A stretch of 64,000 nucleotides of DNA from a virus, in the IMG/VR virus record IMGVR_UViG_3300003702_000496, positions 1 to 64,000 of that record. The stretch is one strand, 5' to 3'. Under the pieces are notes generated by a model. It was given only the letters and a program-made list of their open reading frames with translations. It did not search any database and was not told the origin of the DNA. This document shows, one piece after another, positions 232-45,101 of this stretch. A program made the translations under genes and the position numbers. Within the stretch, counting starts at the first letter, position 1. Each line of letters opens with the position of its first letter.

Positions 232-1901
232 TATTTCTTTCCTTTCTTCTTAATATAAAAATCTTTTTCATCTTCTACTGGTTCTTCTTCTTCACCTTCT
301 GGCGGAAGCCCCAATGCAAGTTTTGCTCTATCTCCAGCATCCATTTCTGGATCAACTGCCATACCAGATGGATCAGTTGGATATCTCATAACTCCATCAC
401 CGCCATCACTTGGAACACCACCATCCATTGGATCAAGATCAGCTTCTTTTCTGATTTGATTTCTCATTTCGTCAATATCTGCATCATTCATACGAAGAAC
501 ATTTTTTAAAACCCATTCTTTACTAAAAAATGTTCCAATATAATTTTCAACAGTTTGTAACGAATTTAATCTCCCTTCCAGAAGTTCTGCATCTTTTAAT
601 TCTGCAAAGTGACCATCTTGTAAAAAGTCATATTGAACGTGTTCTTGTATCGATGGCCAATCCTCTGCTGCAATAATACCCTTTAACAAAAGTTGTGTTT
701 TAAGAATATCTGTAAACATGGGAACAAATTTCTTACGAACCCGTTGAACAAACTTTGTAAACTTTAATTCATCTCTTGTTATTTCTGTTGTTCTACCAAG
801 ACTAAATCCGGCATCAGATTCCATACGAGAAATTGGCACATTAAGAGAACGATATAATTTCTTTTGAAAATATTGAATGTCATCAATTTCACCAAGATTA
901 GAACCGCCGGGCAAAGTTGTAATCTCTGTTCCCCTACCACCTTCACGGCGCGGCAACCAGAAATCTTCTAACATACTCATATGATTTCTATCATCACGAA
1001 TTTCACCAGTAGTTGCATCATATACCAGTTTATTACGATAGCGATTCATTACATCTTTAAGATATTGTTCCGCTTTAACTTTAGGTAAATTACCAACATC
1101 AATATAGAAAATTCTGCGTTCTGGTGCGCGAGAGATGCGATAGATAACAAGTGCATCTTCAATCATACGCAATTGATTTACAGGTTTAATAGCTTTATGA
1201 AGATAGGAAATAACTCTGCCACTATTCCCGTCAATCAAACCAGAAGGAGTGTAAGTAATAGAATCTACTGCAATTTTTACACCTTGAGTCGCTCCAACCA
1301 TTCCAGCAGAACCTAATCCTTTTTCATTGTATATAAAATATTCATTGATCTTTTCAACCATTTCAACACCAGTTTTAGGATCAACATTTTTTTTAAGTTC
1401 TCTAACTTTTTTGATTTTGCTTGAATCAATATATCTTAATTCAGTAATTCCCCTTCTTGGATTTTTTGTATCAATAATTTTATGATAGAAAATTCTTCCA
1501 TCTATATACCAACGTCTAAAAATATCATGGCCTTTTTGTTCAAAATTTAGAAGACGTAAAATTTCTCCAAATTCTAATCTAATTTTTCTTTTAATTTTTT
1601 CTGGAAACGGCAAACGATCTAAAGTAATTTGTACTGCTTGATCATTCTGATTTGAAACAATACCTTCGTTTATAATATCTTCAATAGCTGTATCGCATTC
1701 TGATTGTTGAGCTATATCACGATATCGTCGAATTAAATCTAAATCAGTTCGTTCTCTACCATCTGTATCGAGGATTTGGCCAAAGAAACCGCCCCCCGCA
1801 ACATCAATAGTTCCGTCATCAGGAGTTGGGGTGGAAAATGTTGTTTCTCCCCCCTTATCCTTACTTGATCGTTGTATAGTAAATCCAAAGAGTTCAGCCA
1901 T
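231..1901 (-). CDS. gp20: Portal vertex protein
   Basis: Motifs YRISRAPERRIFYIDVGNLPK, EDFWLPRREGGRGTEITTLPGG. Confidence 0.98.
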   Translation of the reverse strand: MAELFGFTIQRSSKDKGGETTFSTPTPDDGTIDVAGGGFFGQILDTDGRERTDLDLIRRYRDIAQQSECDTAIEDIINEGIVSNQNDQAVQITLDRLPFPEKIKRKIRLEFGEILRLLNFEQKGHDIFRRWYIDGRIFYHKIIDTKNPRRGITELRYIDSSKIKKVRELKKNVDPKTGVEMVEKINEYFIYNEKGLGSAGMVGATQGVKIAVDSITYTPSGLIDGNSGRVISYLHKAIKPVNQLRMIEDALVIYRISRAPERRIFYIDVGNLPKVKAEQYLKDVMNRYRNKLVYDATTGEIRDDRNHMSMLEDFWLPRREGGRGTEITTLPGGSNLGEIDDIQYFQKKLYRSLNVPISRMESDAGFSLGRTTEITRDELKFTKFVQRVRKKFVPMFTDILKTQLLLKGIIAAEDWPSIQEHVQYDFLQDGHFAELKDAELLEGRLNSLQTVENYIGTFFSKEWVLKNVLRMNDADIDEMRNQIRKEADLDPMDGGVPSDGGDGVMRYPTDPSGMAVDPEMDAGDRAKLALGLPPEGEEEEPVEDEKDFYIKKKGKK

Positions 1902-40992: not shown

Positions 40993-41095
40993 GATGGCAG
41001 GGAAAGGAATCGAACCTTTCTGCACCGTAATCTGATATACGTCGTTGCTTAATCAGAAATATCCACAACGTAAAACCCAGCGACCAGGCCTCCCA
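40993..41095 (-). ncRNA. tRNA-like small RNA (T-arm and ...GCCA 3' end, no canonical cloverleaf)
   Basis: AAAGG-TTCGATT-CCTTT T-arm followed by CCCTGCCA; lies just downstream of the promoter at 41115-41143. Confidence 0.55.
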
Positions 41096-41114
41096 TAAAA
41101 GTTAACAATAACAT

Positions 41115-41143
41115 ATACTAACACATAAAGAAATGTTTGTCAA
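41115..41143 (-). promoter_or_regulatory. Sigma70-type early promoter TTGACA-N17-TAGTAT
   Basis: Perfect -35, 17-nt spacer, TGn extended -10. Confidence 0.85.
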
Positions 41144-43508: not shown

Positions 43509-43724
43509 CTATTTGTTCCCTTTAAAATTAACCCAATCCTCAGAGTGTGTTACTGATTTTTCATTCGGTAATTTTTTAAGTTCGGCCTTGAGCCATTCTG
43601 CGTCATATATCGGTTCACTCTTACAAATCTGAGAGATCAACTTATGTACATTTAATTCATATACATCTTTTTCTTTATCCATAATATTTCCTTTAGACAC
43701 CTTATTGCATTTATAGATTATCAA
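43509..43724 (-). CDS. Hypothetical protein (start may be the internal MDKEKD)
   Basis: ORF; paralogous to the adjacent small ORF. Confidence 0.65.
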   Translation of the reverse strand: MIIYKCNKVSKGNIMDKEKDVYELNVHKLISQICKSEPIYDAEWLKAELKKLPNEKSVTHSEDWVNFKGNK

Positions 43725-43761
43725 AGACGGCCCAGTTTTAAGGCCCCCTTTTTTTTAAAAA

Positions 43762-43817
43762 GTGGAGAGGGGTCAATTGATTTTTCATATTGACTACGAA
43801 GAAGACCCCTCTCCTAC
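43762..43817 (-). terminator. Stem-loop (GGAGAGGGGTC/GACCCCTCTCC) followed by TTTT; probable terminator or stabiliser
   Basis: 11-bp perfect inverted repeat just after the HTH gene stop; unusually large loop. Confidence 0.55.
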
Positions 43818-43823
43818 TCTCAG

Positions 43824-44105
43824 CTAGGCAGAAGCAGCTAGTGCTTGATACCCTGCAGCCACAACAGAGCGAGGCGCCGTGCCAAGACGATACTTGCTAT
43901 AAGTCTCGCCGAAGCTGTTAGTACGCTGATTGAGGAACACAGGATAACCCTGCATACGAAGAGAGCTAATAACAGCTCGCGGATTCGCCACACCATAACG
44001 TGCGGTAATCTGCTTAGCAGTTAGCTCAGCTCCACCCTCTAGAGCGGTAATGACCTTCTCGGTCTTAGTTGTAATTGTCGTCATAAAATACTCCTTACAT
44101 GACAT
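43824..44105 (-). CDS. Winged helix-turn-helix DNA-binding protein
   Basis: LTAKQI..RYGVANPRAVIS.LR..GY...YRLG pattern. Confidence 0.75.
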   Translation of the reverse strand: MSCKEYFMTTITTKTEKVITALEGGAELTAKQITARYGVANPRAVISSLRMQGYPVFLNQRTNSFGETYSKYRLGTAPRSVVAAGYQALAASA

Positions 44106-44157
44106 ATCAAGAGCATGCTTATTCGCATACCCATTCAGTAGACCCTATGCCTACATG

Positions 44158-44578
44158 AATAAAAAGGAAGAGCGCCAGGACACATAGCAATTCAGCAATA
44201 TTCGCAATCCCACTCGGGGCGCTCTTCAGTATAAGGACCGCTTCTCAGTCAACACGACTTGACCTTACCTACCTACCATCCATTACAGTAAGCAGTCCTT
44301 TCTATATTTTCATTCTGGGCCTTGGCGTCCCTCCACCTATTGGCTTCATCGGGTTTCGAGCTGCGTCCCTCACGCCCATACCCCCAGACCAGAAATATAA
44401 TTCTCTGGGAGCACCCAATATTCCTTCACCGTAGCTCCATTTCTTACCTTACTGGGAAGGCGGAGCGGTTTAACAGTGTTACAGTGTCAACTTCATTGGT
44501 TCACAAAACCTTTCAGAGGAGAGACTAGCAGTGTCATGTGACCTAACAGGGGCGTCCCGTTCCAGAAGTCTCTCTCTC
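44158..44578 (-). ncRNA. Candidate large structured non-coding RNA (~420 nt)
   Basis: GC-elevated stretch without a credible ORF, between a strong promoter and a U-tract, with several long complementary stems. Confidence 0.65.
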
Positions 44579-44588
44579 ATTATGTCTA

Positions 44589-44617
44589 ATCATAACACAA
44601 AACAGAAGCTTTGTCAA
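44589..44617 (-). promoter_or_regulatory. Sigma70-type early promoter TTGACA-N17-TATGAT
   Basis: Perfect -35, 17-nt spacer, TGn. Confidence 0.85.
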
Positions 44618-44642
44618 GTAAAAAATAAATCTTTTTTTCAGT

Positions 44643-44660
44643 TGTGATAAAAATGTCACA
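44643..44660. promoter_or_regulatory. Palindromic operator TGTGA-N8-TCACA
   Basis: TGTGATAAAAATGTCACA, 25 nt upstream of the -35 hexamer. Confidence 0.65.
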
Positions 44661-44663
44661 CTA

Positions 44664-44864
44664 TCACGGCCGGCCGAGCCTATCCGCTTCCCGCGCTTCG
44701 ACAAGGTCTTTAAAGAGCCGGGAGGTAGGTGTCGGGCCATAGGTCCATAAGGACCCTGTAAGGTACTTGCCTACATGAGCGCTGACATATTCAGCGTCTG
44801 AGGTAGGGCTATGAGCAGCTGCGGCTTTGATACCGAGTGCGATGGCCTTTTCAGTCGCGGTCAT
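44664..44864 (-). CDS. Hypothetical early protein
   Basis: ORF abutting the upstream gene. Confidence 0.65.
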   Translation of the reverse strand: MTATEKAIALGIKAAAAHSPTSDAEYVSAHVGKYLTGSLWTYGPTPTSRLFKDLVEAREADRLGRP

Positions 44865-45101
44865 TTAGATACCGGCCCGTTCTAGAGCATGTTTAAAGAG
44901 CAACATCGCGCCCTCATCCGTATCAAAACCATCCTCAGAAGCAAAGTCCATAGAGCTCGATCCATTTACTTCGGGAGCAATACCCTTATCCAAAAGAATA
45001 TCGGCTACGCCATCAACAGTGTTCGCCCAAGCTGGGTCAGAAGAACCATCCTCGTACAAATACAAACCACCGTTTGATGCACCAATAAAATTAATCGCCA
45101 T
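44865..45101 (-). CDS. Hypothetical early protein (SSSMDF motif)
   Basis: ORF with SD (AAGGA) immediately after an early promoter. Confidence 0.75.
   Translation of the reverse strand: MAINFIGASNGGLYLYEDGSSDPAWANTVDGVADILLDKGIAPEVNGSSSMDFASEDGFDTDEGAMLLFKHALERAGI

Follow-up and report, generated by a model that had tools for sequence, protein, structure and literature searches.

A minigene-bearing, double-pseudoknotted non-coding RNA gene in a marine T4-like myophage

Introduction

What does a strong phage promoter transcribe when no protein gene follows it? The question is raised by positions 44158 to 44617 of IMG/VR virus record IMGVR_UViG_3300003702_000496, of which we analysed positions 1 to 64,000 (64,000 nucleotides (nt); hereafter the window). 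The 83-kb fragment in this record comes from the genome of a T4-like myovirus and encodes a T4-type portal, sheath and terminase as well as gp5- and gp6-type baseplate proteins. On its minus strand, a promoter fires into a stretch that an initial annotation, made from the sequence alone, had interpreted as a structured non-coding RNA of about 420 nt: perhaps a protein sponge, a new large-RNA class or, alternatively, a regulatory leader for the downstream helix-turn-helix (HTH) gene. Here we describe the comparative analysis of this locus, which establishes, at the level of sequence, that this marine T4-like myophage carries a genuine gene for a non-coding RNA, running from an early sigma-70-type promoter to an intrinsic terminator. 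Its core joins a very short reading frame (minigene) to two covarying pseudoknots, and we tentatively read it as a leader that engages the ribosome.

Results

A promoter-to-terminator unit without a protein gene

All features of the locus lie on the minus strand unless stated otherwise. The promoter (44617-44589) consists of a -35 element TTGACA (44617-44612) and a -10 element TATGAT (44594-44589) at a spacing of 17 nt, with an extended -10 TG at 44597-44596. It matches the consensus at 11 of 12 positions, so the strong promoter of the initial annotation was borne out. We infer that transcription starts at about 44583-44581. The stretch has a GC content of 46-51% against ~32% in the flanks, and holds no protein-length open reading frame (ORF): the longest ORFs have 33-38 amino acids (aa), and stops are numerous in all three minus-strand frames. 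This agrees with the annotation of a GC-elevated region with no credible ORF. The transcript, ~425 nt long, extends from the promoter to a terminator with a U-tract (44227-44158; module M4 below) and lies upstream of a winged HTH (wHTH) gene. Every minus-strand stem named in the initial annotation is present at the coordinates given there and is maintained in homologues through compensatory changes, and the promoter, the missing ORF, the terminator and the covariation described next together uphold its reading of the locus as a promoter-driven structured RNA.

Homologues and covariation

When folded as a single sequence, the RNA was only weakly more stable than shuffled controls (z = -1.53; 7 of 100 shuffles folded as well), and the case for structure therefore rests on covariation among homologues. 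We fetched 80 relatives of the wHTH gene; one HTH locus (L061; loci are numbered with the prefix L) held a true homologue of the RNA. Pattern scans on two conserved loops gave three IMG/VR contigs and 88 marine metagenome stretches, mostly from the deep ocean, 87 of which are real family members. A further scan that used domain 1 of the core alone as its key added about 30 further IMG/VR contigs, and a second IMG/VR scan without the H4 loop in its pattern found no new members. Sequence profiles were handled with nhmmer, and three alignments were built: A2 with 62 distinct sequences (variant A), A3 with 17 distinct homologues of module M5, and A4 with ten homologues of module M4.

In A2, 96% of the cells at paired positions form standard pairs, and 21 of the 36 pairs show compensatory change. 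None of 500 shuffles reached the observed pairing, and slid controls paired at 31-52%. Because the frequent G-U pairs of the family fit the minus strand only, this is the strand that is transcribed.

Outside marine metagenomes and viral contigs the family is scarce. Neither the RNA (blastn) nor the wHTH protein (tblastn) had a match in 50,697 deposited phage genomes, and a 7-kb query against deposited phage genomes matched only a 60-nt CobS piece of cyanophages. A scan of cellular genome contigs returned at least 120 matches, a number at the level expected by chance, and one was real among the matches listed. That match, L244 (PAWD01000051.1; compared with L061 and L091), is a contig of a 'Thaumarchaeota archaeon' metagenome-assembled genome that carries the RNA together with bacterial-type promoters and has the length, 19,724 bp, of an IMG/VR viral contig already in the set; it is probably a phage contig that was binned in error. 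Family cores also occur in contigs from the RNA libraries of four studies, libraries in which DNA carry-over is possible. These contigs cover the conserved core and the HTH gene only, are uninformative for the uncovered parts and give no transcript ends; we take them as a weak hint of expression.

A core with two pseudoknots

The conserved core (44514-44312) comprises the minigene, domain 1, hairpins H4 and H5 and a 3' tail. Domain 1 (44414..44478) opens with helix P1 (44478-74 with 44431-27), which is realized with four pair types in the set of more distant sequences collected by domain 1. After the junction UUAAACC follow P2 (GCTCC/GGAGC, 44466-62 with 44438-34) and the enclosed P3 hairpin (CCTT/AAGG, 44460-57 with 44450-47), whose loop (44456-50) and the stretch 44420-14 make up pseudoknot H3. 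H3 is 96-100% paired, shows compensatory change in all seven of its pairs and was confirmed in 32 more distant sequences. In the subtype to which the window belongs, P2 is a regular 5-bp helix, and P2, P3 and H3 are 100% paired, with compensatory changes.

Hairpin H4 (44379..44413) has a 10-bp stem (44413-04 with 44388-79) in which 98.7% of cells are paired and all ten pairs show compensatory change, and a 15-nt loop, GAAUUAUAUUUCUGG (44403-44389). Part of this loop (UUCUGG, 44394-89) pairs with CCAGAA (44318-13) in the conserved 3' tail AAGGCCCAGAAU (44323-44312), forming the second pseudoknot, PK2. It covaries as well, UUCUGG/CCAGAA being replaced by UUCCCC/GGGGAA in L317, L343 and L348 and by UUCCGG/CUGGAA in L325. 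The TATATTT..CTGG/CCAG..AAATATA multibranch domain proposed at first thus contained a real pairing, PK2, inside an AAATATA extension that is specific to the window and not conserved. Taken together, the covariation proves, at the level of aligned sequences, that the core pseudoknots H3 and PK2 are real.

Between H4 and the tail lie hairpin H5 (44358..44371; a 3-bp stem with the 8-nt loop GGACGCAG) and a variable insert (44357-44324) that measures 0-70 nt in relatives. In the middle pair of H5, A-U and G-C are equally frequent, with 31 sequences each. The H5 loop was part of the search pattern, so that its invariance is partly by construction; in relative L347 it reads GGACGGAG. The 3' tail is conserved although it lay outside the metagenome search pattern. 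Invariant unpaired segments of the core are GAAUUAUAU, GGACGCAG, UAAACC and GAGUAGG/GAAAGCUAU.

Two repeats pointed out in the initial annotation can now be placed on this structure. GGGACGC occurs three times, and only the copy at 44363, in the H5 loop, is conserved; those at 44552 and 44325 are chance parts of variable hairpins. The three copies of ACACTG fall in a conserved segment of M5, at the end of the minigene and in the 5' strand of P1.

Other interpretations of the core were tried and set aside. A small ORF spanning H4, with its AUG inside H3, has neither a conserved AUG nor a conserved frame, and the changes in the stem are compensatory at the RNA level. Likenesses to CR-I/CR-V of RNase P, to loop E and helix IV of 5S rRNA and to the cobalamin 'GCCACUG' box differ in segment order and find no covariance model match; we treat them as chance or as a shared loop-E-type motif.

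A minigene at a fixed distance from domain 1

The 5-codon minigene was, like H3 and the modular build of the transcript, absent from the initial annotation. In the window it occupies 44479..44514 and reads AUG AAG UUG ACA CUG UAA (44496-44479), with the start at 44496-44494, a stop (44481-44479) that abuts P1 and a Shine-Dalgarno (SD)-like GAAAGG at 44514-44509. In 54 of the 62 variant-A members an AUG stands 15-21 nt (mostly 17-18) before P1 and meets an in-frame stop after 0-4 codons; the same layout precedes P1 in 27 of 29 more distant members of the domain 1 set. L130, L154, L104 and L120 have UUG or AUU in frame in place of AUG. Across the family it is the start that is fixed relative to P1, while the position of the stop and the length of the frame vary, and domain 1 begins 0-11 nt after the stop. 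Pairing to the anti-SD upstream of the AUG averages -6.0 kcal/mol in the family, compared with -1.0 and -3.1 kcal/mol in flanking windows and -4.1 kcal/mol for same-letter shuffles. SD, start and a stop within a few codons, as in the minigenes of the lambda bar type, are thus found in the window, where the SD is weak, and in most members of the family.

With an AUG in the P site, about 15 downstream nt fill the mRNA channel of the ribosome. An AUG 15-21 nt from P1 would therefore put the folded domain 1 at the channel entrance. From this arrangement we infer that the ribosome is a partner of the RNA. The conserved SD and the start-stop type of minigene also argue for the ribosome and not for a sponge.

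A mosaic transcript

The transcript is a mosaic, as judged by sequence conservation, of four independently conserved modules: M5, the core, M3 and M4. M5 (44515..44578) is the 5'-terminal hairpin, with the outer stem GAGAGAGAGACU/AGUCUCUCCUCU (annotated initially as GAGAGACT/AGTCTCTC). Its conserved part is UCUGGA ... UAGGUCAYAUGACACUGCUAG, and its inner hairpin, which happens to hold one GGGACGC, changes in sequence among homologues and keeps its pairing. Six pairs with compensatory change were found in A3 with RNAalifold.

M3 (44233..44300) consists of the outer stem AAGGACUGCUU/AAGCGGUCCUU (AAGGACTGCTT/AAGCGGTCCTT in the initial annotation), enclosing a conserved ACUGUAAUGGAUGGUAGGUAGGUAAGG, and a variable hairpin. 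Six homologues have outer stems that differ completely in sequence and are still complementary, for example CCCCUCUCU/AGAGAGGGG and CCAGACCUAGC/GGUUAGGUCUGG. An invariant run within M3, GGAUGGUAGGUAGGUAAGG (44263-44281), contains five GG tracts at 2-3-nt spacing and is kept in six otherwise divergent copies; judging from its letters, a two-tier G-quadruplex or some other G-rich tertiary motif could arise here.

M4 (44158..44227) is an ornate intrinsic terminator, in which a 10-bp GC-rich outer stem, GAAGAGCGCC/GGCGCTCTTC (44227-18 with 44176-67), surrounds a conserved interior and is followed by a U-tract of five (44165-44161), as in Rho-independent terminators. A simple terminator scan passed over it on account of its long loop. 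In A4, six pairs show compensatory change, and stem and T-run are present in all ten homologues.

In relatives the core is found together with other modules, the manA motif or tRNAs whose start lies ~10 nt behind it. In L124, a manA motif (RF01745, 57 bits; 979-1150, minus strand) lies ~100 nt 3' of a core and its M4 terminator, in an array of RNA modules before a tRNA, a setting more in line with an RNA island than with a gene-specific leader. It is domain 1 that is found most widely, with at least three different 3' domains behind it. Variant-B RNAs, common in surface-ocean viral contigs, measure ~190 nt and consist of minigene, domain 1, a different H4, H5 and tail, and a U-tract (L315, L320-L322, L324, L328, L333-L335, L339, L341, L346, L349 and L350). 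Their loop-tail pseudoknot covaries too (CCUG/CAGG, CCGG/CCGG, CUAG/CUAG, CUGG/CCAG). A truncated variant (L085, L105, L117, L126 and L149) precedes a 91-nt tRNA-Arg-like gene and has M5, AAGGAG and an AUU-led 3-codon frame, then H4, H5 and tail, without domain 1.

Promoters and downstream genes of the family

A promoter of the same type stands 45-110 nt 5' of the core in nearly all of the ~88 homologous loci. Downstream of the family RNAs we found tRNAs or unrelated early genes (HTH_39, DUF932, DUF7178, GP88 and DUF6011). In the window, the next gene (43824..44096; ribosome-binding site AAGGAG at 44096-91, ATG at 44084) encodes an 86-aa wHTH protein (HTH_39, phrog_4973), and AAGGAG and gene begin 70 nt after the U-tract. 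The gene lacks a promoter of its own, so that some read-through past M4 must feed it. A homologue follows the RNA in 22 loci, in none of which it has its own sigma-70 promoter. The suggestion that the RNA could serve as a leader for the HTH gene accordingly remains viable.

About 25 nt upstream of the -35 element, an operator-like dyad followed by an A-tract can be read from the sequence (TGTGA-N8-TCACA, 44643..44660). Less symmetric, degenerate versions (GTGACATATATGCAACA and similar) occupy the same position before many promoters of the family. The adjacent wHTH protein is the obvious candidate for a protein that would bind the dyad.

Comparison with known RNAs

In the 64 kb, no family of Rfam 15 reached its gathering threshold, and at E<=10 the 1-kb region around the RNA gave only a chance snoRNA-like match on the plus strand. 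Scans of 20 + 20 + 10 homologous loci, covering the modules, returned nothing but tRNAs, one manA and one sub-threshold GP20-b. Rfam matched neither manA (RF01745), GOLLD, ROOL, RNase P RNA, signal recognition particle (SRP) RNA, 6S RNA, group I or II introns nor known ribozymes in the window, and none of these appeared in 20 homologous loci at E<=0.05. The initial failure to recognize tmRNA (transfer-messenger RNA), RNase P, SRP or a group I intron was thereby confirmed, with ARAGORN as a further check for tmRNA, and the proposal of a new large-RNA class stands.

The tmRNA comparison deserves a closer look, as the 350-450-nt gap before the wHTH gene is filled by a permuted two-piece tmRNA (93-123 bits) in about 60 of the 80 relatives. 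Such tmRNAs have already been described for marine Melnitz- and pelagimyophage-like viruses (PMC9004378). In the window, ARAGORN found no tmRNA, one-piece or permuted, Rfam tmRNA models gave no match at E<=10, and the three frames of the RNA contain no tag frame without a start codon that ends in ALAA-stop. A degenerate tmRNA was rejected because the phage has an intact one elsewhere: its own permuted two-piece tmRNA (RF04321, 111 bits, tag ANDNEAFEDYALAA) lies outside the window at 79,571-79,939 of the genome, minus strand. A tRNA-Thr is also found outside the window, at 72557-72632. The permuted tmRNAs of marine myophages (RF04321/RF01849; PMC9004378) share with the window RNA the slot, the early promoter type and the downstream wHTH gene; they too are pseudoknot-rich and offer a very short reading frame to the ribosome. 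The window RNA, in contrast, has no tRNA-like domain, CCA end or ALAA-type tag, and offers SD and AUG instead.

The nearest catalogued object is GP20-b (RF03003), an orphan candidate cis-regulatory phage motif, and its overlap with the family is confined to the 3' domain of distant relatives. Two variant-B members match it below the cut-off of 36.2 bits and yet non-randomly (L341, 31.7 bits, E = 1e-6 per genome; L346, 20.3 bits), whereas neither the window nor the whole genome has a match at E<=10. The matched domain is a hairpin with loop-tail pairing plus a small hairpin, the same architecture as H4, H5 and tail in the window. The match to the 62-position model covers the 3' domain only, with domain 1 and the minigene outside the matched part, and the downstream genes checked here are not GP20.

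Stable RNAs of phages offer more distant parallels. The rnaC and rnaD of phage T4 (species 1 and 2) are small stable RNAs encoded in its tRNA cluster. Like the present family, they are RNAs of a T4-type phage without an assigned function near tRNA genes; no minigene is described for them, and the likeness is one of description, without a sequence or structure model. GOLLD and ROOL are often found beside tRNAs. They resemble the family as ornate, pseudoknotted, phage-borne RNAs without an assigned function (10.1101/2024.12.08.627333), but the family core is much smaller, its modular mosaic and minigene are not known from those RNAs and Rfam finds no match. For the minigene, the closest counterparts are lambda bar and the toxic minigenes of two to a few codons (PMC2490762), which combine SD, AUG, 0-4 codons, a stop and a phage promoter as the family does; many members even begin AUG AUA, as lambda bar does. 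What sets the family apart is that its minigene stands at a fixed distance from a conserved double pseudoknot and that its codons are not conserved. The family is thus uncatalogued in the sense that no Rfam family or described mechanism matches it; the 10,006-candidate csRNA catalogue (PMC10690425) lies outside this comparison.

The surrounding region

The RNA is part of a GC-rich island (46-52% versus ~32%) at about 43,700-45,100, which also contains two small ORFs (78 and 66 aa) and the wHTH gene, and has the look of a cassette that was swapped in. In L085-type contigs, too, the RNA is preceded by the 78-aa ORF. Six minus-strand promoters of the same design, TTGACAAA... with an extended -10 TG, occur in the window (41143, 44617, 45159, 52850, 53994 and 54255), and those at 44617, 45159, 52850 and 54255 have the common initial transcribed sequence (A)AGACAUAAU or one near it. 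The pattern points to a common early-promoter class that serves RNA genes and protein genes alike. The promoter at 41143 (TTGACA-N17-TAGTAT) begins a second ORF-free element (40994-41143), whose RNA has a perfect T-arm, AAAGG-TTCGATT-CCTTT, and the 3' strand CCCTGCCA; neither ARAGORN nor Rfam makes a call there.

Discussion

What might such an RNA do? The element is promoter-proximal in nearly all loci, downstream genes such as the HTH gene lack promoters of their own, and several variant-B relatives have an ORF with its own SD that begins 10-30 nt past the U-tract. For these reasons we think of it as a leader. That it would engage ribosomes is suggested by the start codon, which keeps its 15-21 nt from P1 whatever the length of the frame, and by the enrichment of anti-SD complementarity just upstream of the AUG. 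We therefore tentatively favour, while giving it somewhat less than an even chance, a translation-coupled leader of early transcripts, promoter-proximal and engaging the ribosome, that would control what is passed on downstream. In such a leader, a host ribosome would load on the minigene, and the spacing of the start codon would bring the double pseudoknot to the mRNA entry channel of the initiating ribosome, so that translation of even a few codons would have to begin unwinding P1. The encounter would make the element a control module at the head of early transcription units, setting the amount of transcript or the ribosome traffic that reaches the parts behind it: M3, M4 and, via read-through, the wHTH gene in the window; tRNAs, other RNA modules and assorted early genes in relatives. 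The invariant loops GAAUUAUAU, GGACGCAG, UAAACC and GAGUAGG/GAAAGCUAU would either shape the tertiary fold or be points of contact with the ribosome or a factor. Since the early genes downstream are heterogeneous, a generic operon-head module fits better than a gene-specific regulator.

Several observations weigh against a leader. In L315, L321, L328 and L334, promoter and U-tract delimit the RNA as a closed unit, behind which the next gene is served by a separate promoter; in L148, L169 and L178 a tRNA starts ~10 nt after the core. Sister phages hold a trans-acting tmRNA in the very same slot. In the window, the autonomous modules M3 and M4 lie between core and gene, no terminator/antiterminator pairing that would join the core to M4 or form a common expression platform was found by inspection, and the SD-like GAAAGG is weak (-3.4 kcal/mol, at 12-nt spacing), below the family norm.

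Some of these points would be explained by a free-standing, trans-acting stable RNA of a phage RNA-gene island, comparable to tmRNA, tRNAs or T4 rnaC and rnaD, which we hold to be possible if rather unlikely. Such an RNA would be made early, be freed by its own terminator or by tRNA processing and have the host ribosome or a protein as its target; the minigene would dock it on ribosomes or shield its 5' end. The slot that it would fill belongs to a permuted tmRNA in ~60 sister loci, several loci have tRNAs directly behind it, M4 or U-tracts mark its end, with the next gene in some relatives under its own promoter, the downstream genes are mutually unrelated, and the many invariant unpaired bases recall RNAs with a binding pocket. 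It fits poorly that the element always heads a transcription unit, that many downstream genes rely on read-through, that a 5' SD and minigene are unusual among known trans-acting RNAs and that no partner protein consistently co-occurs. A bolder version, which we consider doubtful on the sequence data at hand, is that the family forms a new phage class of ribosome-capturing RNAs, early, abundant and trans-acting, in which SD and minigene would recruit the host ribosome and the double pseudoknot would hold it.

Other ways of acting from a promoter-proximal position are improbable. A metabolite-sensing aptamer that controls termination or translation of the downstream genes would suit the compact double-pseudoknot fold, its many invariant junction and loop bases and its place directly behind a promoter; glnA riboswitches have been reported near this locus in related marine myophages (PMC9004378), and a manA motif lies nearby in L124. 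Riboswitches, however, are not known by a conserved minigene, no shared expression platform was found, the cargo ranges from tRNAs to unrelated genes without forming a coherent class, and independent modules separate core and terminator in the window. We assign a similarly small probability to a cis-acting processive antitermination RNA, which, like the put RNA of phage HK022, would modify RNA polymerase, here to carry it past M4-type terminators and into genes without a promoter. The family's constant position behind the promoter and the common order of terminator-like modules followed by promoter-less genes are what one would expect of it, but members such as L061 and L132 have no terminator before the next gene, the tmRNA-type loci share the terminator-then-HTH layout without the family RNA, the fold bears no likeness to put and the minigene would go unexplained. 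Less probable still is that the core is a ribozyme that cleaves itself, or a processing signal, and so cuts an array into its modules: a double-pseudoknotted fold with invariant bases, located in RNA-module arrays and beside tRNAs, would be in keeping with this, yet ~185 nt is large for a self-cleaver, no known ribozyme model matches and no conserved cleavage-site signature was seen. The CsrA/RsmA-type sponge suggested initially from AGGGA loops is hardly credible, as two of the three GGGACGC copies are not conserved. The third does provide one conserved GGA-containing hairpin loop, GGACGCAG in H5, whereas sponges carry many.

The design of a minigene in front of a double pseudoknot is not known from any characterised regulatory or catalytic RNA, and the family merits an Rfam entry even if it is a plain leader. 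GP20-b, so far an orphan, may turn out to be a domain within a larger RNA, and the orphan modules M5, M3 and M4 recombine like cassettes. The tmRNA slot of these phages appears as a swap site for different ribosome-related RNAs. With a defined AUG, a defined spacing, two pseudoknots and invariant loops, the element provides a concrete handle on phage-ribosome contact or on the gating of early operons. If the RNA does capture ribosomes, it would be the canonical-initiation counterpart of the tmRNA of sister phages, and would reprogram, park or mark host ribosomes during takeover. Already if the reading favoured here holds, marine T4-like phages, among the most abundant viruses of the ocean, carry a widespread early RNA that combines a frame of one to five codons with a double pseudoknot.

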